Origin: Deltaproteobacteria bacterium
GTDB taxonomy: Bacteria > Desulfobacterota > SM23-61
Reading direction: 5' to 3'
Assembly (NCBI GenBank): GCA_016875165.1
Contig: VGSF01000002.1
Location: 33,033 to 97,032 of the forward strand
Length of the DNA stretch: 64,000 bases
A program made the translations under genes and the position numbers. The number at the start of each line of letters is the position of its first letter. The first letter of the stretch is position 1. Positions 3,386 through 52,560 of the stretch are shown in pieces. The notes beneath the pieces were generated by a model. It did not search any database, was not told the DNA's origin, and saw only the letters and a list, made by a program, of their open reading frames with translations.

Positions 3386-4582
3386 ATGGCTAAATCAGAA
3401 ACCCCGTTTTTGGATGAGCTGGAAAAAGGGGAATGGCCGAGCTTTGTGAAAGACATGAAGCAGGCCGCCGAAAAAAAGCCCATGGCCAAAGACCTCTTGC
3501 GTCAGCTCGAGCTTTCCTATAAAGAAAAGATCGGGCATTGGAAGCACGGAGGCATCGTGGGCGTCAAAGGGTATGGGGGAGGAGTGATTGGAAGATACTC
3601 CGATCGGCCGGACTTATTCCCGGGCGTGGAGCACTTCCACACCATGCGGGTCAACCACCCGACGGGATGGTTCTACACAACCAAGGCTCTACGGACACTT
3701 TGCGACATCTGGGACAAACACGGCAGCGGTCTGACCAACATGCACGGCTCTACGGGAGACATCATTTTGCTGGGAACCACCACCGACCATTTGCAGTCCT
3801 GTTTTGATGATCTCTCCGACGCCGGGTTTGACCTGGGGGGGTCAGGGTCGGCTCTGCGGACTCCCAGCGCCTGCGTCGGCCCGGCCCGTTGCGAATGGGC
3901 CTGCATCGACAGCCTAAATATCTGTTATGACATCACCATGAGTTTTCAGGATCAGCTGCACCGCCCGATGTTCCCTTACAAATTCAAAATCAAAGTTTCG
4001 GGCTGCGCCAATGACTGCGTCGCTTCCATCGCCCGGTCGGATTTTTCGATTATCGGCACCTGGAAGGGTAAGATCCAGATCGACCAAAAAGAAGTTCAGG
4101 CCTATGCGACCGCCGGACTGGATGTCAAAGCTGAGATCACGGACCTCTGCCCGACAAAATGCATGACCTGGGATGAAAAGGCGAAAACGCTGGCGATTGA
4201 AGATGCCGACTGCACCCGCTGCATGCATTGCATCAACATGATGCCCAAGGCCCTGCGCCAGGGAAAAGAAAAGGGCGCCACCCTGCTGATCGGCGGCAAG
4301 GCCCCCATTGTCCAGGGCGCGCTGCTTTCCACGGTCATCGTGCCTTTCATGAAACTGGAGCCTCCCTATCAGGAGTTGAAAGACCTGATTTTAAAGATCC
4401 TTGACTGGTGGGATGAACACGGCAAGATGCGGGAAAGAGTGGGAGAGCTGATCAATCGGCTGGGCATGCGAACATTTCTTAAGGACATAGGGTTAAAACC
4501 GGTTCCCCAGATGGTCAAGAACCCGCGAACGAACCCCTATGTGTTCTTCTGGCCCGAAGATATCAAGAAGGAGGTAAAGTAA
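3386..4582 (+). CDS. dsrA: Dissimilatory sulfite reductase alpha subunit
   Basis: The ATG at 3386 lies 6 nt after the RBS GGAGGAG (3373-3379). Sulfite-reductase hemoprotein pattern ([16 protein letters not shown]) and a ferredoxin-like [12 protein letters not shown]. It is immediately followed by dsrB and dsrD. Confidence 0.9.
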
Positions 4583-25790: not shown

Positions 25791-26267
25791 GGGGGGACGT
25801 AGTTGAAAATTAACACTTATTCTAGGCTCCTTCCAGGTTCTGAATGGCTTTAGCAATCGCTGAAGTACATACTCCCGTTTGCCGGGCGATCTCAGCCCTC
25901 GAAATCCCGAATTCATGACTTAGATAATACGCGATCTTCGCTCGCACCCCTGAGTACTTTCTCGTCCTCACCCCCACCCGCAATTCCCGTTCCGCAACCC
26001 CTTCTTTAAGACATATCTCCTTAATGAAATTATCAATAGAATTATTAATTTCACCGGCCCGGAGATACCTCCTTACGGTCTTTTCAGCTTCTCTTATAAT
26101 CTCAGCTACAAAATCTCCCTTCCCTAAAATCCGGCTCTCATATTTCATCTTCTCCCGAGAACCTCTTAGAGATATTACCTGAGACCAACCCCCTAAGCTT
26201 CGAATCAATCCCCCACCCACTAACTTTTTCCATATCTGTAAAGTGCTATTTTTCAACTACGTCCCCC
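25791..26267. mobile_element. Decayed Y1-transposase (IS200/RAYT-like) element bounded by inverted repeats
   Basis: ggggggacgtagttgaaaa (25791-25809) is inverted at ttttcaactacgtccccc (26250-26267). Only the C-terminal HTH half of the transposase survives. Confidence 0.65.
25822..26256 (-). pseudogene. C-terminal fragment of Y1 transposase with DnaA-C-like HTH
   Basis: GGGLIRSLGGWSQVISLRGSREK...RAEIARQTGVCTSAIAKAIQ aligns with residues ~195-324 of the 29243-30217 product. The HUH/Tyr domain is missing. Confidence 0.7.
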
Positions 26268-28963: not shown

Positions 28964-29172
28964 ATGGGTATTCTGTCTAAAGTGACCCGCACCATCAAGG
29001 AAGGAGCCTTGGCCAGTGCGATGGCGACGACCCGGAAATTGACCGGAGGGTATGACATTGCCCTAAGGATCATCGCTGTCTCCTTCAGTGTTTTCTTTCT
29101 ATACACCACTTTCTTCGGATTGATCTCTCAGGAATCCCATATCGGCCTCTATTTCCTTGGAACCTTTGTGGT
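28964..29172 (+). pseudogene. N-terminal fragment of TRAP-T (TAXI-type) fused permease, truncated by the IS element
   Basis: RKLTGGYDIALRIIAVSFSVFFLYTTFFGLISQESHIGLYFLGTF matches TRAP 4TM/12TM permease N-termini. Homology ends at the left IR of the element (29173). Confidence 0.55.
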
Positions 29173-30249
29173 AAAAAGGGACGTTGTTCATTTGGTTCAG
29201 AAACTACTTGACAGGGAGAGAAAAAAGGATTAATGGAGGGGGATGCCACGGAAAGCGCGATTAGATGTCCCTGGGACCCTGCACCACGTCATGGTATGGG
29301 GGATAGAAGGAAGTAATATTTTCCGGGACGATGAAGATCGGAAGGCTTTTGTAGATAGGATCAGGTATTTGGCCAAAGAAACCGGAACCCGTATTCTGGC
29401 TTGGGCCCTAATGGGCAATCATGTTCATTTGTTGCTTGTTAGCGGGCCGGATGGCTTATCAACTTTTATGCGGCGACTATTGACTGCCTATGCTATTGGC
29501 TTTAATCGGAAACATCGTAGATTTGGGCACCTATTCCAAAACCGTTATAAATCCATCATCTGTGAGTTGGAACCGTACTTACTGGAGTTAGTCCGTTACA
29601 TTCATCTTAATCCGTTCCGGGCTGGGGTGGTGAAGAGCTTTGAAGAATTGGAGAATTATCCTTGGTGTGGTCATGGAGTCTTGACAGGCAGGCAGAGGAA
29701 TGATTGGCAGGAAAAGGATTTTGTGCTTGGTTTTTTGGGGTCTAGAGGAAAAAAAGCAGTTCGTGCTTATCGGGGATTCATGGAGGCCGGGAAATGTTTG
29801 GGACAGAGGTTGGAGTTGGTGGGTGGTGGATTGATTCGGAGTATGGGGGGTTGGTCCCAAGTTTTGTCTCTTCGGAATAGAGGTGAGAAGGAAGCTTATG
29901 ATGAGCGGATTTTAGGGGATGGGGATTTTGTTCAAGCTATTTTGGCGGAAGCGGATCAAAAGTTAGCTCGACAAATTCGAGCCCGAAAGAAAACCGGGTC
30001 GTTATCGATAATTATTAAAGAAAGGTGTCGGGAAGCTGGAGTCAATGAAGTTGAGCTAAGATCAGGGAGCAGGCGAATGGCCGTGTCGGAGCTGCGGAGG
30101 AGGCTTTGTTTTTATTTATATCGAGAGCTGGGTATGCCGATGGCTGAAATTGCTCGTCAAGTTGGGGTAGGGACAACAGGGGTGGCTATGGCTGTTAAAG
30201 AAGCAACGACAAGATAATAATTGAATGAAATGAACAACGTCCCCTTTTT
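29173..30249 (+). mobile_element. IS200/RAYT-like Y1-transposase element with ~21-bp terminal inverted repeats
   Basis: aaaaagggacgttgttcattt (29173-29193) is inverted at aaatgaacaacgtccccttttt (30228-30249). Contains a single transposase ORF. Confidence 0.75.
29243..30217 (+). CDS. Y1 (HUH) transposase, IS200-like / REP-associated tyrosine transposase family, with C-terminal DnaA-C-like HTH
   Basis: HUH motif GNHVHLL and catalytic-Tyr region FQNRYKS. The C-terminus AEIARQVGVGTTGVAMAVK is HTH-like. Confidence 0.8.
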   Translation: MPRKARLDVPGTLHHVMVWGIEGSNIFRDDEDRKAFVDRIRYLAKETGTRILAWALMGNHVHLLLVSGPDGLSTFMRRLLTAYAIGFNRKHRRFGHLFQNRYKSIICELEPYLLELVRYIHLNPFRAGVVKSFEELENYPWCGHGVLTGRQRNDWQEKDFVLGFLGSRGKKAVRAYRGFMEAGKCLGQRLELVGGGLIRSMGGWSQVLSLRNRGEKEAYDERILGDGDFVQAILAEADQKLARQIRARKKTGSLSIIIKERCREAGVNEVELRSGSRRMAVSELRRRLCFYLYRELGMPMAEIARQVGVGTTGVAMAVKEATTR

Positions 30250-30316
30250 CCCGAACAGCTCACCGGCGGCAATGGAGCGCAGCGGAATTGCCGTCCGGTA
30301 CAGCGCCTTGTTAGAC
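30250..30316 (-). other. attC site (canonical size, 67 bp) of the methyltransferase cassette
   Basis: Minus strand reads GTCTAAC-aaggcgctgt-accggAcggcaat-loop-attgccgccggt-gagct-GTTCGGG. There is a bulged base on the R''-proximal arm. Confidence 0.65.
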
Positions 30317-30330
30317 CATTCTTTATGCGT

Positions 30331-31317
30331 CTACTTTTTAAGCACATTTACTACCACACCATTGCTTCCATAGAAAACATCCACTTCTTTGTTCTCAGGT
30401 GAATCAACCATTTCCTTTACTTCTTCCAAAGTTTTTGGAGTATCATAAGTCGCACCTAAAGCATCAAAAGTGTCCATAATTGCCCATTCTAAACGCTGCT
30501 TTTTATTAAGACCAATGCCAATGTAATTCCAACACGGAATTGGGATTAACGCGACTATTCTGGAGCCAAGCTTGGGAATTCTCCGAATGGCTGTATCTAT
30601 TGGTAAATAAAGCGGAATATACGCCTCTATGATTTTCAGTAGTGTATCAGGATTCATTCGAGATGTAATTGGACGCCAAATATACTTTGGAGTCGACCAA
30701 GGCGTAGGAATTCTCATCTTCCTATAGTAGTCAATGGAAATCTTCCCCCCAGACCTAAGCTTTGAAAAAATAGCTCTATATGCTTCTGTTGGAACGGGCG
30801 TATGTTGTAAAACCCCGTAGCAAAATACGTAATCAAAAACGCCATCTGGAAATGGAATATCATAAAGATCGCCCTGAAAAATGAAAAGATCACCTTTATT
30901 TTTATTGTTATCATAGTTAGCAGTCACAGCATTGCTATAATCAAAACTGACAACTATTGCTCCGGCCTGTAATAGGATTTCAGTAAACCTTCCTGCGCCT
31001 GACCCAACCTCCAAAACAGTTTTCCCAGAAAGTTCTTCTGCCTTCCATTTTGTGTTAGACCAAAACCGTTGGGCTGTAAGAGGAATACCTGACGCACTAT
31101 CAAGTTGTGTGGATTTGAACTTGTTCCACTGCAAACCAAAATTATCAGCATAGTTTTCGGTGGAAATAAATCGAGGAATGCCCCCAACAATATCAACGGT
31201 CTTGTGCTTGACTCTTTTAGAAAGCAATTGACCACTAATTATGGTATCATTATTAATTTCTGTAGCTTTCAGCTCATAATCTTCCGCCAAGTACTTGTCA
31301 AAGTGTGTTCGTTTCAT
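30331..31317 (-). CDS. Class I SAM-dependent methyltransferase (integron cassette)
   Basis: Motif I VLEVGSGAGRFTE. The start MKRTHFDKY at 31317 is more likely, because the listed 31488 start runs into the attC-like repeat. Confidence 0.75.
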   Translation of the reverse strand: MKRTHFDKYLAEDYELKATEINNDTIISGQLLSKRVKHKTVDIVGGIPRFISTENYADNFGLQWNKFKSTQLDSASGIPLTAQRFWSNTKWKAEELSGKTVLEVGSGAGRFTEILLQAGAIVVSFDYSNAVTANYDNNKNKGDLFIFQGDLYDIPFPDGVFDYVFCYGVLQHTPVPTEAYRAIFSKLRSGGKISIDYYRKMRIPTPWSTPKYIWRPITSRMNPDTLLKIIEAYIPLYLPIDTAIRRIPKLGSRIVALIPIPCWNYIGIGLNKKQRLEWAIMDTFDALGATYDTPKTLEEVKEMVDSPENKEVDVFYGSNGVVVNVLKK

Positions 31318-31341
31318 GAGTATTCCTTTTTGAAGGTCTAA

Positions 31342-31635
31342 TGCGGAGTTGAGCAGTGCCCCGGAGGGGCATCTGTTCGAACTCCTTGTTCTCCCCGAGC
31401 GGAGCGAGGGGAAGGAGTTCGAACCCTGCTCAACTCCGCATTCCCCCCTCGCTTCGCTCGGGGGGAATGGGCCGGATGAGCGGCGCATTCGCGTCCGTTC
31501 GATCCGGGTTGATGGGCCGCGCTTCGCGGACCATCAACCCTCCGCTAATCCGGCCCAATGGCACGACGCGAAGCGTCGGGCCATCGCAAAAATCAGCGGT
31601 GGCTGTAAGCCATCCGCTGGAGTGACAGGTTATCT
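31342..31635 (-). repeat. Composite attC-like repeat (modules M1-M2-M3-M4)
   Basis: M1 is the palindrome aatgcggagttgagcag...ctgctcaactccgcatt. M2 is cccccc-N11-gggggg. M3 is gggccggatgagcgg...ccgctaatccggccc plus cgacgcgaagcgtcg. M4 is cagcgg-N15-ccgctgg next to the AGATAAC box. Confidence 0.7.
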
Positions 31636-31648
31636 GAATCCTTTCCCA

Positions 31649-32005
31649 TCAATAATTTATACTAATTTTCTCAGTAAACTTATTCAGGGTTTTATCGAGG
31701 GTCCAAAGGAGAACACTTGTTAATACAGCGGATGCAATCAGATGGACATCTATATAGCCTAACCCCTTTCCCATCAGTTGATTATTCTTAATGAATTTTA
31801 AGACTTCTTCATCTTCGGATAAAATCATCATTGGGAGGGATTGAAGATAGGTAAGGATTTCATGTCTATGCTTGAGATTCCCACAGGCAAGCTCTCCAAC
31901 AATAAATGGGTGGCATACAACTTCTCCGTCATATAGTAATTTCTGAAGTTCTTCATTTCCGTAACGCAGGTGAGAAACCCATACCGAGGTATCAACAAGA
32001 ACCAA
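31649..32005 (-). CDS. vapC: VapC PIN-domain toxin (cassette)
   Basis: MVLVDTSVWVSHL... with PIN acidic residues. Starts 1 nt after the vapB stop. Confidence 0.8.
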   Translation of the reverse strand: MVLVDTSVWVSHLRYGNEELQKLLYDGEVVCHPFIVGELACGNLKHRHEILTYLQSLPMMILSEDEEVLKFIKNNQLMGKGLGYIDVHLIASAVLTSVLLWTLDKTLNKFTEKISINY

Positions 32006-32006
32006 T

Positions 32007-32204
32007 TTATTTCTCTGCTATTCTCCGGCGCGGTATCATTTTCAGTTCCTTTTCCGTTCCGCCCAGTTTTGCAAGCCTCTTGCTGCTTTCCATTGCAATT
32101 AATGCCTCCAACCCAAGCTTGACAAGGGTTGTTTTTTCTTTGATACCTGTCAGCTTCGAAACCTTCTTGATTAGGTTGTCTTCGATGTTTAAGGTCGTCC
32201 TCAT
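32007..32204 (-). CDS. vapB: VapB-type antitoxin (cassette)
   Basis: MRTTLNIEDNLIKKVSKLTGIKEKTTLVKLGLEALI, with a GGAGG RBS before the ATG at 32204. Confidence 0.75.
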   Translation of the reverse strand: MRTTLNIEDNLIKKVSKLTGIKEKTTLVKLGLEALIAMESSKRLAKLGGTEKELKMIPRRRIAEK

Positions 32205-32273
32205 ATTAGCCTCCGAGAAATTTATATGTATCAATATGCACGATTCATGCATATTTTGTCAAGAAATTATTAA

Positions 32274-32345
32274 TGATAACGTGCCGCATCACCGGCCGGC
32301 GGAAGCGAAGCTGGAGCCGGTCCGTTGTGCATGCGGTTGTTATGC
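32274..32345 (-). other. Canonical 72-bp attC site
   Basis: Minus strand reads GCATAAC ... imperfect hairpin ... GTTATCA. Extra (bulged) bases sit on the R''-proximal arm, as in characterised attC sites. Confidence 0.7.
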
Positions 32346-32362
32346 CATGCTCTCTTTCGTGG

Positions 32363-32623
32363 CTACTTCAACTTCGCTCGGCACTGAAGCAGAAGTTCCT
32401 CGGCTTTTTCCTTGCCGAACGTCCTCACCATCTCTTCCCACATGGGCGATTTCCTGATGCTCTCCTGGAATTTCTTCGTCATTTCTTCCAATTGGTCTGG
32501 TGATGGCGCTGTTCCTGAGGAGAGAAGGTGCATCCCTTCATCGTCCATCCAGGTGAGTGGTGGGAGGGTTGGTGGGGTCGCAGCTCGATTGGCCTTCTTG
32601 GTTTTCTTTTTGATCTTTTTCAT
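32363..32623 (-). CDS. Hypothetical cassette protein (86 aa)
   Basis: ORF between the TTATGCC cassette start and its own attC. Lys-rich N-terminus, no family recognised. Confidence 0.45.
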   Translation of the reverse strand: MKKIKKKTKKANRAATPPTLPPLTWMDDEGMHLLSSGTAPSPDQLEEMTKKFQESIRKSPMWEEMVRTFGKEKAEELLLQCRAKLK

Positions 32624-32642
32624 ATCGTCGTTTCTGGCATAA

Positions 32643-32812
32643 TGCGGAGTTGAGCAGTGCCCCGGAGGGGCATCTGTTCGAACTCCTTGTTCTCCCCGAG
32701 CGGAGCGAGGGGAAGGAGTTCGATACGGCTCAACTCCGCATTCCCCCCGAGCGGAGCGAGGGGAAGGAGTTCGATACGGCTCAACTCCGCATTCCCCCCG
32801 AGCGGAGCGAGG
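32643..32812 (-). repeat. Composite repeat (M1 with internal partial duplication, plus M2)
   Basis: The segment ccccccgagcggagcgaggggaaggagttcgatacggctcaactccgcatt occurs twice in tandem. Confidence 0.7.
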
Positions 32813-32876
32813 GGGGAACGTTGCGCTTCAGCGGGGCGCTCTTTTTTTGCGTCCGACTGAAAGCGCTTGGTTATGC
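32813..32876 (-). other. Canonical-size attC (64 bp) of the 171-aa cassette
   Basis: Minus strand reads GCATAAC (overlapping the ORF stop) ... hairpin ... GTTCCCC. Confidence 0.6.
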
Positions 32877-33386
32877 ATAGATTTTTACAGCTTGATGAAA
32901 TTTGCCAAGCTTTTCATGGAACTGTTTTTGTTGACCCGTCGAGGGAAAAAAAACTACTACGCCGTTGTTTTGAACTGTGAATCCTAGTTGCTTCAATCGT
33001 GGCTCCAGAATCCTGCATATATTTGATTTTACCAATATAATCGGTATTTGTTTGCCTGCACATGCTTTTTCAAGGTCTTCTACTAAATTGCTAAAATCGC
33101 GTAGGATCACATCATTTCTTTTCTTCCCTTTTAGTTCATTAACAGGCTGGTATGTTGCGTCTAGAAGCAAATACCCTGCCTTTTGAAATAATTTGAGTCC
33201 TCCTTCTTTATTTTTTGCTGTAACACCCAACAGTTTCATCATTTCTGCGAAAAGTGGCTCAGATGTCTTCCCACTTTCGTCATAAAAATACAACCCCGAA
33301 GCTGGCGGAGATTCTAATACAAAAATATATCTTAAGTTGTCAGGAAGATATTTATTTCTATGATGTAGGTAATACTCTCTTTTCAT
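32871..33386 (-). CDS. Hypothetical cassette protein (171 aa)
   Basis: Clean ORF filling one cassette. It faintly resembles the uracil-DNA-glycosylase fold (VLESPPASG, LLDATYQP), but this is not secure. Confidence 0.5.
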   Translation of the reverse strand: MKREYYLHHRNKYLPDNLRYIFVLESPPASGLYFYDESGKTSEPLFAEMMKLLGVTAKNKEGGLKLFQKAGYLLLDATYQPVNELKGKKRNDVILRDFSNLVEDLEKACAGKQIPIILVKSNICRILEPRLKQLGFTVQNNGVVVFFPSTGQQKQFHEKLGKFHQAVKIYA

Positions 33387-33413
33387 GGCACCCCCAATTG
33401 ACTATGTGCATAA

Positions 33414-33583
33414 TGGGCCGGATGAGCGGCGCATTAGCGTCCGTTCGATCCGGGTTGATGGGCCGCGCTTCGCGGACCATCAACCCTCCGCTCATCCGGC
33501 CCAATGGCACGACGCGAAGCGTCGGGCCATCGCCGAAGCTCAGCGGCGTGCGTCAGCATGTCCGCTGGAGCGACTTGTTGGCT
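33414..33583 (-). repeat. Composite attC-like repeat (M3-M4)
   Basis: Same M3 and M4 modules as 31342-31635, without M1/M2. Bounded by AGCCAAC (minus) and ggcccA|TTATGCA. Confidence 0.7.
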
Positions 33584-33734
33584 TCAATTTTCTCGGAGGA
33601 AGACGGATGACTTTATGTCCAGAAGCGACCTGAACGGAACGTAGGTCGGCGCAAATCGCGGAGAGGTCGCCACGAAATTTTCGAGTATGCACCATTCGAT
33701 TCTTGCGCACTTCCTCAACAATTAAGTCCTTCAT
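33540..33734 (-). CDS. Hypothetical small protein, putative partner of the PIN-like gene (cassette)
   Basis: ATGA overlap with the upstream ORF. The C-terminus runs into the attC-like repeat. Confidence 0.45.
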   Translation of the reverse strand: MKDLIVEEVRKNRMVHTRKFRGDLSAICADLRSVQVASGHKVIRLPPRKLKPTSRSSGHADARR

Positions 33735-34213
33735 TTTTCAACCTCCAACAGTTCTTCAGGCGAGCAAATTTCAGGGCAGGCATATCCCTCGTTTTCGACA
33801 ATCTGTCTCACCATCCTTCGGGTGAAGGGGTTATTCAGGTGAGCAAAATTCCACGTGATGACAACCTCGATACCATTGACTGCCGCCACAGCAATATGAA
33901 GAGCGTCTTCTGGATATTGTGCAGGTATTCCCTTTTTGGCGATAATCTTTTCGGCGAGCATTCGCGCCTCGTCGTCAATGTCGAGCATAGGGAATGGCTC
34001 AATTGCCGCAAGCCTCATTTAGACTTGCTCTGAAGCCCCTCTTCTGGCTTCTTCAACAAAGACGAGTGCTGAAATGTAGGTTTCATATTTGGCAAGCAAC
34101 TTAGGCCAAAGCTCACGCGTGGCCTCTTGATGCCCAGCAACCATGATGTCGCGGCTCGGCTTGGCAGTGAGATAACTTACCACAGTGGTTTCAATGTATA
34201 GTCGTTTTTTCAT
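33731..34213 (-). pseudogene. PIN-like nuclease gene interrupted by an in-frame TAA
   Basis: MKKRLYIETTVVSYLTAKPSRD...GASEQV*MRLAAIE...DALHIAVAAVNGIEVVITWNFAHL reads as one PIN-like protein across the stop at 34019-34021. Confidence 0.55.
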
Positions 34214-34279
34214 AATCAGGTTATCAGATGTTTTAGATTTTCTCCCCAAAAAATCTTACATTCTTGCATAGAAAGCCAA

Positions 34280-34532
34280 TGCGGAGTTGAGCAGTGCCCC
34301 GGAGGGGCATCTGTTCGAACTCCTTGTTCTCCCCGAGCGGAACGAGGGGAAGGAGTTCGAACCCTGCTCAACTCCGCATTCCCCCCGAGCGAAGTGAGGG
34401 GGGAATGGGCCGGATGAGCGGCGCATTTGCGTCCGTTCGATCCGGGTTGATGGGCCGCGCTTCGCGGCCCATCAACCCTCCGCTCATCCGGCCCAATGGC
34501 ACGACGCGAAGCGTCGGGCCATCAAGTTATTC
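34280..34532 (-). repeat. Composite attC-like repeat (M1-M2-M3)
   Basis: Near-identical to the modules at 31342-31570. Bounded by GAATAAC (minus) and ccgcA|TTGGCTT. Confidence 0.7.
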
Positions 34533-34548
34533 TATGGTTTCTGTATAT

Positions 34549-34690
34549 CTCCGCATTCCCCCCCTCCGCTTCGCTCCGGGGGGAATGCGGCGCTGAGCGG
34601 TGTGTGCCTTGTCCACCCCTCCGCTCCGCCGCGGGGAGAACAAGGCACATGAGACGGATGCCCCTCCGGGGCACCGCTCAGCGCCGCAAT
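34549..34690. repeat. M2 plus a diverged M1-like palindrome, adjacent to the intI promoter region
   Basis: Sequence ctccgcattcccccctccgcttcgctccggggggaatgcggcgctgagcgg...ccgctcagcgccgcaat. Confidence 0.6.
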
Positions 34691-34799
34691 CCATTGGGTT
34701 GTAAAGTCTGCGCCCATGAGGAGATCACCTTTCTCATTGAATACCCGGTCTCTTAAAACCCCGGAAACCCATTAACTATCGAACATATTATATAATATC

Positions 34800-34828
34800 T
34801 TGACAAGTATTTTTCAACCCTTTATTCT
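34800..34828 (+). promoter_or_regulatory. Candidate sigma70 promoter for intI
   Basis: TTGACA (34800-34805), a 17-nt spacer, then TATTCT (34823-34828), about 55 nt upstream of the intI ATG. Confidence 0.35.
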
Positions 34829-34882
34829 TATCTTTCCGCATATCATGTCGTTATTAATGTTATCCCGAATGAAGGATCCCAC

Positions 34883-35543
34883 ATGCAGACTATCCCCTCG
34901 GCATTACAGGCAAGGTTTGAAGATCATTTACGGAGCAAAAGCATTCCAGAATCTTTGTTATGGCACTTTAAGAAATGGCTTCGTTATTATTTGGACTAAG
35001 GGTGTCGGCAACGACGCAAAACCAGGCGTTCAATTCCCTGTTATTCTTTTACCGCCACGTTTTGCATAAGGAATTCGGCCAGGTTGAAGGCGTCGTCCGA
35101 GCAAAACGAAAACCTTATATCCCTTTGGGTCATTGAAAGTGCTGCATCAGAACGACTTGCATCGCGGGTATGCCGGTGTATTCCTGGTAAATGCCCTGGA
35201 GCAAAAATACAAAAATGCGGCCGGGGAGTTTATCTGGCAATGGTTTTTCCCGGCCAAGCAGTTGACCTTCGATAGCAACGCAGGAGAATATCGTCGCTAT
35301 CATCTGCACGAAACCCATGTGCAACACGCCATCAAACAAGCGGTGGGCAAGGCAAGAATAACCAAGCGGGCAACGGCCCATACTTTTCGTCACAGTTTTG
35401 CCAGCCACCTGCTCCAGGACAACTATGACATCCGGACGATCCAGGAATTACTGGGGCATAGCGATGTCCGGACCACAATGATTTACACGCATACCGTAAA
35501 GAGCGTCACCATAAAGGACGCCAGAAGTCCGCTGGATTTTTGA
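34883..35543 (+). pseudogene. intI: Integron integrase with two internal deletions and frame changes
   Basis: Three fragments in three frames. Fragment 1: MQTIPSALQARFEDHLRS...WLRYYLD*. Fragment 2: VSATTQNQALNSLLFFYRHVL...[10 protein letters not shown]. Fragment 3: [21 protein letters not shown]...[12 protein letters not shown]...[15 protein letters not shown]. The IntI-specific insertion (ALExKY..W.W.FP) is present, but the segment with the first catalytic Arg is missing. Confidence 0.8.
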
Positions 35544-35677: not shown

Positions 35678-36015
35678 ATGGCAAGAGCAAAGCGGCATTA
35701 CATCCCGGGGTTTATCTGGCATATCACCCATCGTTGCCATGAACGGGAATTCCTCCCCAAATTTTCAAAGGATAGGCGTCGGTGGCTGCAGTGGTTGTAT
35801 AAAGCGAGGAAGCGATATGGTTTGACGATCTTGAACTATATGGCAACCTGCAATCACATCCACTTGCTTGTCGTTGATGATGGGGAAAAGGACATCATCC
35901 CCAATTCAACGCGATTAATGGCAAGACGAACTGGCCAGGAGTACAACTATGACGCGTGCCGGCGTGGTTAAACATCCGACGATGTGGCCATTTTGCGGTT
36001 AAAATGAGATCCAGG
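35678..36015 (+). pseudogene. Y1 (IS200/RAYT-like) transposase remnant with internal deletion
   Basis: MARAKRHYIPGFIWHITHRCHEREFL...CNHIHLLVV (HUH), then a jump to RAGVVKHP..WPF..NEIQ in another frame. Confidence 0.65.
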
Positions 36016-36068: not shown

Positions 36069-36226
36069 GTTTCGTAAAAAGTCCATCTGCCCCGCTATTA
36101 GCGGGATTGCGCCTCACTTTCGTCGTTGCGGCGCACCTAAAAGTACGCTACACTCCTCAGTCCCGCTCTGAGCGGGATTGCGCGCCTTGTCCCGCCTCGG
36201 CGAGAGAGCTTTTTACGAGATCAGCA
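36069..36226. repeat. MITE of the TTCGTAAAAAG...CTTTTTACGA family (variant interior)
   Basis: Ends ggtttcgtaaaaagtcc ... gagctttttacgagatcagcaa. Interior hairpins ccccgctattagcggg and tcccgctctgagcggga. Confidence 0.7.
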
Positions 36227-43213: not shown

Positions 43214-43347
43214 CTTCGCATAAATAATGGAACGCTGTGCCGCACTTAAATTGCCCCACTCACCTTTCTCCTCTCCCCCCAAAAGGGGGGAGAGGGCGGG
43301 GTGAGGGGGGAATAGTAGAACGGATGAAGCTCCATTACTTTTGCGAA
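43214..43347. repeat. MITE with TIR CTTCGCATAAATAATGGAAC and a G/C palindrome interior
   Basis: cttcgcataaataatggaac ... gctccattacttttgcgaa. Interior ccactcacctttctcctctcccc...ggggagagggcggggtgagggg. Confidence 0.65.
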
Positions 43348-47145: not shown

Positions 47146-47201
47146 CCCCCTCACCTTTATCCTCTCCCCCGATTTGGGGGGAGAGGGGAGGGTGAGGGGG
47201 G
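47146..47201. repeat. G/C nested-palindrome REP-like insert between the two rSAM genes
   Basis: ccccctcacctttatcctctccccc gattt ggggggagaggggagggtgagggggg. Confidence 0.7.
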
Positions 47202-49370: not shown

Positions 49371-49514
49371 TTAGAACTTGTCCGTAAATAATATTCCCCC
49401 CTTTGCAAAGGGGGGCGAGGGGGGATTTTGATCAGGAATCCCAAGGTAAATCCCCCTATGTCCCCCTTTTTCAAAGGGGGATTCAAGATCGCGACTTATT
49501 TAAGAATAAGCTCT
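49371..49514 (+). repeat. ~145-bp MITE 'E', copy 1
   Basis: TIR agaacttgtccgtaaataat ... acttatttaagaataagctct. Interior cccctttgcaaagggg and cccctttttcaaagggg hairpins. Near-identical to 52411-52560. Confidence 0.75.
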
Positions 49515-52410: not shown

Positions 52411-52560
52411 TTAAGAACTTGTCCGTAAATAGAATTCCCCCCTTTGCAAAGGGGGGGCGAGGGGGGATTTTGCTCGGAAATCCCAAATCAAACAAATCCC
52501 CCTATGTCCCCCTTTTTCAAAGGGGGATTTAAAACCACGACTTATTTAAGGATAAGCTCT
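52411..52560 (+). repeat. ~145-bp MITE 'E', copy 2
   Basis: Same orientation and near-identical sequence to 49371-49514. Confidence 0.75.

Follow-up and report, generated by a model that had tools for sequence, protein, structure and literature searches.

The cassette array of a small integron in the 64,000-nucleotide (nt) stretch analyzed here (Deltaproteobacteria bacterium, contig VGSF01000002.1, positions 33,033 to 97,032; hereafter the window) contains long repeats made of several hairpins, which raises the question of what these repeats are. A preliminary description of positions 31342-31635 had read them as noncanonical sites in the place of attC, the recombination site of a cassette, assembled from four reusable modules, M1 to M4. 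Our comparisons of sequences point to another composition, namely that the long repeats are probably ordinary short attC sites together with one or two mini-cassettes that contain no open reading frame (ORF) and consist of attC only. Two families of such units, type A and type B, were distinguished. The units show the anatomy, position, polarity, and insertion-site behavior of cassettes. The interval 31342-31635 comprises a type A unit, a type B unit, and the attC of a vapBC cassette.

Organization of the cassette array

All modules were found where the preliminary description had placed them. M1 is present at 31340-31443, 32641-32743 (with two partial repeats of 51 bp that extend to 32814), and 34278-34381; M1b, a diverged copy in inverted orientation, occupies 34577-34692. 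Each M1 is adjoined by M2, a CCCCCC-N11-GGGGGG hairpin. M3 is located at 31467-31560, 33413-33506, and 34405-34498, each time followed by a hairpin of 27 nt, M3b, and M4 is located at 31593-31635 and 33540-33583. As single-stranded DNA, the four long stretches folded far better than shuffled sequences (z = -7.4 to -16.9). Outside 31340-34692, blastn-short detected no module within the 64-kb window. The assumption that four modules combine freely is wrong, since M2 and M1 form one fixed two-part unit (type A), M3b and M3 form another (type B), and M4 is a normal attC. Likewise, the AAT/ATT triplets that had been taken for separators are variant AAC/GTT triplets of the units and not spacers.

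The array was read on the - strand from attI (~34523) to 30256. All cassette ORFs lie on this strand to the left of an integron integrase pseudogene (intI remnant; 34884-35543, + strand), which is divergent from the array. They comprise three small ORFs (including a PIN fragment), ORFs of 171 and 86 amino acids (aa), vapB-vapC, and an S-adenosylmethionine (SAM) methyltransferase with matches to methyltransferase families of Pfam. The attC sites were scored with R1, a home-made covariance model with 7 base pairs that was based on 23 canonical attC sites, all of them from foreign contigs. The features are listed below in array order; vertical bars mark the crossover, and the putative mini-cassettes are given as type A and type B units.

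34523-34883, - strand: attI region; crossover base G at 34523, ...ACAGAAACCATAGAATAACTTG|
34406-34522, - strand: type B unit (M3b + M3), first cassette at attI; junctions G|ATGGCCC and GGCCCA|TT
34280-34405, - strand: type A unit (M2 + M1); junctions A|TTCCCCCC and CTCCGCA|TTGGCTT
33531-34279, - strand: cassette with three ORFs; start TTGGCTT, complementary to R'' box AAGCCAAC
33531-33583, - strand: ordinary attC (M4) of the three-ORF cassette; R1 32 bits, E 1.6e-6
33414-33530, - strand: type B unit; junctions G|ATGGCCC and GGCCCA|TTATGCA
32819-33413, - strand: cassette with the 171-aa ORF; start TTATGCA, R'' box TGCATAAC
32819-32877, - strand: ordinary attC of the 171-aa ORF cassette; R1 28.1 bits, E 2e-5; fold with bulged bases
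32643-32818, - strand: type A unit with two extra 51-bp partial repeats; junctions G|TTCCCCCC and CTCCGCA|TTATGCC
32280-32642, - strand: cassette with the 86-aa ORF; start TTATGCC, R'' box GGCATAAC
32280-32346, - strand: ordinary attC of the 86-aa ORF cassette; R1 30.6 bits, E 3.9e-6
31585-32279, - strand: vapBC cassette; start TTATCAT, R'' box CAGATAAC
31585-31636, - strand: ordinary attC (M4) of the vapBC cassette; R1 22.1 bits, E 1e-3
31468-31584, - strand: type B unit
31342-31467, - strand: type A unit; its last base, A, is the complement of T at 31342 and corresponds to the A that had been noted instead of G
30256-31341, - strand: methyltransferase cassette; start TTAGACC, R'' box GGTCTAAC
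30256-30317, - strand: ordinary attC of the methyltransferase cassette, last of the array; R1 20.2 bits, E 3.3e-3

Each of the five ORF cassettes starts with the reverse complement of its own R'' box, which fixes the crossovers to the base, and the units fill exactly the space from one crossover to the next. Four of the five ORF cassettes are located behind an A-type unit. The three canonical attC sites previously recognized in the window are real, as are the A|TT junctions at 31342/31341 (CTCCGCA|TTAGACC), 32643/32642 (CTCCGCA|TTATGCC), 33414/33413 (GGCCCA|TTATGCA), and 34280/34279 (CTCCGCA|TTGGCTT). An additional type of junction, G|AT, in which attC or attI is followed by type B, had not been listed.

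In the 64-kb window, R1 produced exactly five significant matches, all on the array strand (33529-33583, 32278-32345, 32817-32876, 31588-31635, and 30254-30316), and both M4 hairpins were among them. Every ORF cassette therefore keeps an ordinary attC and the units are extra, so that a description of the long repeats as noncanonical sites in attC positions is misleading. The M4 hairpin of the vapBC attC is present in identical form in contig L009, part of a Nitrospirae metagenome-assembled genome (MAG), where it forms a complete attC with a normal G|TT, and in contig L150, where it forms a normal attC with G|AT.

The window integron is small, chromosomal, and decayed, and its array is frozen. 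The ORF at 35133-35543 matches the integron integrase family TIGR02249 at profile positions 181-313 of 315 only. In a tblastn comparison with the intact IntI of contig L222, the remnant covered only aa 197-247 and 323-461 and lacked residues 1-196 and 248-322. Look-ups with the Y1 and AFOR proteins retrieved the same locus from four metagenome samples of one lake series at 99.98-99.99% identity. These look-ups returned only the same, nearly identical locus, and the data thus contain neither local polymorphism nor a strain-level empty site. Exact-protein look-ups with the methyltransferase and VapC of the array gave no match.

Structure of the type A and type B units

In the window, type A has 126 nt and is composed of TTCCCCCC, 11 nt, and GGGGGGAA, followed by T, M1, and A. 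In general form, read on the array strand, the unit has ~126 nt and consists of TTCyCCCC-11 nt-GGGGrGAA, a pyrimidine (Y), M1, and a purine (R), after which the TT of the next cassette follows. The M1 palindrome contains a stem of 14-17 bp, a hairpin b, the conserved linker GAGACGGAT, and a hairpin a. Type B has 117 nt and is composed of AT GGCcCGACGC-TTC-GCGTCGtGCC AT, T, the M3 palindrome, and A|TT. In both types, the start of the unit is the reverse complement of its own R'' box, namely TTCCCCCC/GGGGGGAA in the M2 stem of type A and ATGGCCC/GTGCCAT in the M3b stem of type B.

The alignment of type A copies revealed compensatory changes in the M2 stem and in other stems. The single-stranded linker GAGACGGAT and the near-invariant arm GGGAGAACCAGGCAC are conserved across these copies. 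At its end, hairpin b of M1 carries an M2-like box, TTCTCCCC-N11-GGGGAGAAC, with an almost invariant 3' arm. This homology between M2 and the tip of hairpin b explains the 51-bp repeats at 32643-32818, which have a spacing of 51, as a duplication between the two. As a speculation, the box of hairpin b and the conserved linker might represent two integrase-binding boxes on separate hairpins.

Translated into the anatomy of a cassette, the first arm of a unit would be the remainder of R' and the second arm its own R'' box, with M1 or M3 as the rest of attC; the cargo between the R' remainder and R'' would amount to only 11-13 nt. With so few nucleotides between them, the two arms fold on each other in the integrated state, which accounts for the M2 and M3b hairpins. 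An alternative parse of M1, in which GGAGAAC of hairpin b serves as R'', hairpin a provides the L boxes, and R|TT serves as R', was rejected because it scored only 14 bits and conflicts with the edges seen at empty sites; this arrangement is a possible relic of the origin of M1.

The 11-nt loop of M2 was observed in both orientations, GAGCGAAGCGA and TCGCTTCGCTC, as in the window at 31441-31469 compared with 34377-34405, and the same difference is present in L122, L192, L210, and L211. This looks like a flip/flop inversion of the loop of the hairpin. The loop contains GCGAAGC, a very stable DNA mini-hairpin motif.

Distribution and insertion sites of the units

A scan of metagenomes for the two arms of the M1 stem retrieved more than 116 contigs. 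The counts given below are derived from the matches listed and, for type A, refer to the 111 non-identical contexts among them unless another denominator is stated. Nearly all of the 119 stretches obtained from a genome collection with the loose pattern AATGCGGMGYTGAGCRG were single chance matches; the real type A matches were in L009 (Nitrospirae), L094 (Thermodesulfovibrionia MAG), and L099 (Desulfobacterales MAG). The contigs with type A appear, from their names, to derive from groundwater, sediment, soil, and lake samples.

The unit starts with TT in 110/111 contexts and is preceded by G in 103/111 and by A in 8/111. The bases that follow it were T (98/106), T (104/106), and a purine (99/106), corresponding to the TTRRRY start of a cassette. 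In all contexts, M1 was flanked on one side by an M2-type hairpin, and there was never an ORF between them. Downstream of the unit, a sense ORF (at least 50 aa) begins within 120 nt in 76 of the 90 cases that could be assessed, so that the polarity of the units is that of the array. The upstream neighbor was an attC-like hairpin in at least 52 contexts, the end of attI in at least 18, and another mini-cassette in 5, whereas 28 neighbors were not classified and mostly resemble, by eye, imperfect attC or attI ends. The hand-made detector of upstream attC sites is crude (20% false positives at random GTT positions) and classes were partly assigned by eye; these counts are therefore lower bounds.

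Units were the first cassette in the contigs with full-length intI (L127, L222, and L234) and in L218, of which only the N-terminus of IntI is available. These first-position units are located 149-161 nt from the start of intI and are divergent from it. That units are often first at attI, where integration mainly takes place, is consistent with recent capture. The L222 IntI passes the TIGR02249 model with 385 bits (cut-off 265), and type A was found beside IntI proteins that share 38-72% identity with that of L222.

Comparison of contigs with and without a unit placed both edges of the units at the integrase crossover and revealed no target duplication, although no single pair of contigs has both flanks in common. 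The 22-mer that ends the window attI, ACAGAAACCATAGAATAACTTG|, also ends attI in L167 and L199, where type A follows, and in L235, where an ordinary ORF cassette (TTAAGTC...) follows; in the window it is followed by type B. After the attC end ...CGGCGGCCCGAGACGGCGAGCG|, L189 has type A and L223 has an ORF cassette. The cassette beginning with TTGAGGCTGTAGG... follows type A in L191 and stands directly after an attC in L209. The TT after a unit is the start of the next cassette. Units thus occur at attI and at various attC sites, in various arrays, and in the orientation of the array.

Type B was seen in three copies in the window and otherwise only in L150 and L184, which belong to the same lake series. 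It always follows the ...G| of an attC or attI or the ...A| of type A and always precedes TTA..., and it occurs alone, before type A, and after type A.

Two contigs showed additional rearrangements. In L223, two type A units point in opposite directions (2582-2713, +, and 3842-3967, -), and both the attC beside them and the sequence downstream are nearly the same, as if a block of cassettes had been duplicated in inverted orientation. In L009, the cassettes are interleaved with two separate pieces of the intI C-terminus (2143-2223 and 2837-2896), which suggests rearranged or nested integron remnants.

The crossover base and the cleavage triplet

The A reported in place of G at the crossover base was correct and is compensated by T in place of C in R''. 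The closing pair of the M1 stem is formed, on the array strand, by R, the base after M1, and Y, the base between M2 and M1, and in the circular cassette Y·R is the first base pair of the AAC/GTT cleavage triplet. The A instead of G therefore pairs with T instead of C and constitutes a compensated variant, AAT/ATT. In the 111 contexts (alignment columns 34-146), the closing pair was T·A in 51, C·G in another 51, and mixed in 9. Both states are found inside at least four clusters of near-identical units, and some pairs of opposite state differ at only one other position, which indicates that the switch is recurrent. Where the preceding site ends in A, Y was T in 8/8 cases; in the integrated state, this A can pair with Y across the M2 hairpin. 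Taken together, the switch would most simply result from palindrome-perfecting mutation (quasipalindrome correction) or from selection for pairing.

The type B triplet, ATT/AAT, is changed in two of three positions and is self-complementary. For IntI1, the first nucleotide of GTT can be any base provided that both partners match, whereas a mismatch costs 10^3- to 10^4-fold, and a change at position two or three is accepted if only one of the partners carries it (Frumerie et al. 2010, PMC2811028). The variant triplets thus lie within the known tolerance of an integrase.

Origin of the units and alternative explanations

According to the explanation that we consider probable, integron integrases would excise and integrate the units at the usual crossover of attI and attC. 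Having no gene, the units would be non-autonomous and probably selfish passengers of the integron system. Three properties are those of cassettes: both sides lie at the IntI crossover without target duplication, the start is complementary to the unit's own R'' box, and the units are found at attI and at diverse attC sites in array orientation.

A number of findings weigh against this explanation. With restored R boxes, M1 and M3 form in both types an uninterrupted 23-bp stem with a branched tip and have neither the unpaired central spacer nor the extrahelical bases of attC; the folds reach -53.6 (type A) and -52.4 (type B) kcal/mol, as compared to -12.9 kcal/mol for the bulged canonical attC at 32819-32877. 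The home-made model R1 gave 14 bits (E 0.18) for the 3' half of M1 and nothing for M3. Furthermore, a G-type site precedes 44 of the 51 T·A units, a combination disfavored 10^3- to 10^4-fold by the IntI1 rule, so that either these integrases differ or the switch came after insertion. The intI of the window itself is dead, the array was identical in four metagenome samples, and the evidence on type B comes from one lake system only. Finally, a diverged type A unit (M2 + M1b; 34556-34688, +) lies in inverted orientation inside attI, away from the crossover. It lies ~35 nt from it, points toward intI, has the flanks ...CTCCGCA| and |ATCCATT, and interrupts the sequence ...CAATGGA / GAGATATACAG..., which is continuous in L199, L231, and L235; in L221, a unit also points toward intI, at 64 nt from the intI start. 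Simple integration by IntI does not explain the inverted unit in the window, which may reflect insertion at a secondary site or a rearrangement.

That each long repeat is one very long noncanonical attC of the preceding ORF cassette is hardly conceivable. Chromosomal integrons do contain very long attC sites with complex loops, and the long repeats do sit at the expected place and start with a proper R'' box (AGATAAC, AGCCAAC). However, their parts occur separately: the M4 hairpin by itself makes up a complete attC in L009 and L150, type A stands by itself behind attI or an unrelated attC in more than 100 contigs, and type B stands alone at 33414-33530, in L150, and in L184. R1 placed a complete site on M4 only, contrary to the single conventional attC with a large loop that the preliminary description had considered, and minimum free energy folds consisted of hairpins side by side with unpaired outer R''/R' ends. 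A low probability is assigned to units resembling repetitive extragenic palindromes (REPs), REP doublets forming hairpins (REPINs), or miniature inverted-repeat transposable elements (MITEs) that are moved by a single-strand transposase (RAYT-like [REP-associated tyrosine transposase] Y1, IS200-type, or another enzyme) targeting the attC/attI crossover. The units are perfect GC-rich palindromes without attC bulges, and M2 loops in both orientations suit hairpin-based DNA transactions. Moreover, a gene with Y1_Tnp and DnaA_C domains of Pfam (29243-30217, +) adjoins the array beyond the last attC, its product scoring 68 bits with the NCBIfam model REP_Tyr_transpos, for which the cut-off is 80, a second Y1 fragment follows the intI remnant (35678-35971), and a Y1 gene is located ~1 kb from a truncated unit in L099. 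However, Y1 homologues were present at only 3 of 117 unit-bearing loci, and the Y1 gene of the window is flanked by its own, unrelated 30-nt inverted repeats. No unit was found outside the array in the 64-kb window, in viral contigs, or in plasmids, and in the sequence examined the modules had none of the copies outside arrays that would be expected of generic REPs. Unit ends coincide with the IntI crossover to the base at both folded attC and duplex attI, their polarity follows the array, and neither the many dispersed copies and repeat-flanked RAYT gene of a REP/REPIN system nor the target-site duplication that a MITE combines with terminal inverted repeats were observed. Of the two possibilities raised in the preliminary description, ORF-less mini-cassettes are retained, whereas hairpin elements that home to the R' box in the manner of IS1111-attC or group IIC-attC introns are disfavored, because the units have no coding capacity, lie at the exact IntI crossover at attI and attC, cause no target duplication, and keep the polarity of the array.

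The units could also be mini-cassettes that are kept for a host function, for instance as insulator, modulator of transcription or translation, or folding aid, and would then not be selfish; we regard this as unlikely. Their strong conservation, including linker GAGACGGAT and arm GGGAGAACCAGGCAC, their frequent location between Pc/attI and the first gene, and the T·A closing pair beside G-type sites, which by the IntI1 rule should block excision of the neighboring cassette, are in agreement with such a function. In addition, several gene-less cassettes of Vibrio act as promoters (Blanco et al. 2024, PMC11014356). However, a consensus scan placed no site resembling a promoter or terminator within the units, the region was not enriched as compared to shuffled sequences, and conservation is equally expected for an element that spread recently. 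A related and rather doubtful proposal is that the mini-cassettes are minimal parasites whose variant triplets (AAT/ATT and ATT/AAT) set classes of recombination compatibility and thereby lock or insulate arrays. An A-type unit between G-type sites would block the excision of itself and of the cassette behind it, and the units would act as natural insulators against recombination, freezing arrays, or conversely as docking sites for A-type cassettes from a separate pool.

Neighboring Y1 elements and other repeats

The 30-nt inverted repeats around the Y1 gene (29170-29199 and 30222-30251) are 87% complementary and have no further copies in the window. The right arm starts directly after the G|TTCGGG crossover of the last attC, and the Y1 element thus occupies the position of a next cassette. 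In L240 and L241, which carry versions of this locus, the Y1 gene as called is truncated (248 aa) and the similarity to the window ends at 29527; in L240, IS21-like genes are located just upstream. The truncated Y1_Tnp ORF at 35678-35971 is followed by two CCCGCT-N-AGCGGGATTGCGC hairpins (36086-36112 and 36157-36183). A third ORF, at 25822-26256 (-), resembles a DnaA_C-like C-terminus of Y1 proteins.

No Rfam family was detected in the window at the gathering threshold. Intergenic C6-N-G6 hairpin repeats (e.g., ATTCCCCCCTTTGCAAAGGGGGGCGAGGGGGGATTTT) are located at 43255-43310, 47146-47201, 49373-49514, and 52414-52560. They have only the C and G runs in common with M2, differ in loop and flanks, have no M1 beside them, and appear to be an unrelated family. 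Dispersed pairs of direct repeats of 144-270 nt with 81-87% identity (17023-17272/22681-22930, 38479-38743/56703-56968, and 42057-42200/63857-64000) are likewise unrelated to the integron modules.

Relation to known systems and implications

The units resemble canonical attC sites (59-base elements) in their inverse R''/R' boxes, the crossover between the first and second base of a GTT-type triplet, the conservation of stem structure rather than of sequence, and a fixed orientation in the array. In contrast to these sites, M1 and M3 have no spacer or extrahelical bases and are highly conserved in sequence across contigs, and the conserved triplets AAC (R'') and GTT (R') are replaced by AAT...ATT in type A of the window and by ATT...AAT in type B. 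With REP/REPIN and bacterial interspersed mosaic elements (BIMEs), which are mobilized by RAYT, they have in common short GC-rich palindromes, mosaic combinations, and a RAYT-like gene nearby; unlike these, they are not dispersed in the sequence examined, do not flank the Y1 gene, and are found only at integron crossovers with the polarity of the array. IS1111-attC elements and group IIC-attC introns are also mobile DNA specific to integron recombination sites. They encode a transposase or a reverse transcriptase-ribozyme and insert within attC and not at the crossover, whereas the units (117-126 nt) are too short for such a gene and are also found at attI.

For the highly paralogous families of non-coding cassettes in Vibrio arrays, a selfish or a regulatory nature has been proposed (Boucher et al. 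2006, PMC1382264). Like these, the units have no ORF, are bounded by crossovers, are repeated within and between arrays, and are highly conserved. They differ in that their cargo is only 11-13 nt, leaving a bare attC with R half-sites that fold on each other, that the attC part is a perfect palindrome with a three-way junction, and that the triplet is AAT/ATT (half of the type A copies) or ATT/AAT (type B). Moreover, the Vibrio families are confined to vibrios, whereas type A is spread across integrons with IntI proteins of only ~40-70% identity. In the literature, of which our coverage is incomplete so that novelty is unproven, we found gene-less cassettes but neither attC-only cassettes nor these repeats. 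The reduction to a bare attC, the architecture of a perfect palindrome, the compensated triplets other than AAC/GTT, and the breadth of type A appear to be new.

A cassette usually consists of a gene and a recombination site, whereas these abundant units of ~120-130 nt are the site alone. They will confuse attC finders and cassette counts in metagenomes, since tandem attC-like hairpins inflate numbers and lead to misplaced borders, and they are a ready marker for one large environmental integron pool. If integrases move them, the units are likely a selfish layer on integrons, and we know of no smaller cassettes. They would then also be evidence from nature that compensated variants can take the place of the "invariant" AAC/GTT triplet, and would represent recombination sites without the bulged bases that are thought to be needed for strand choice.

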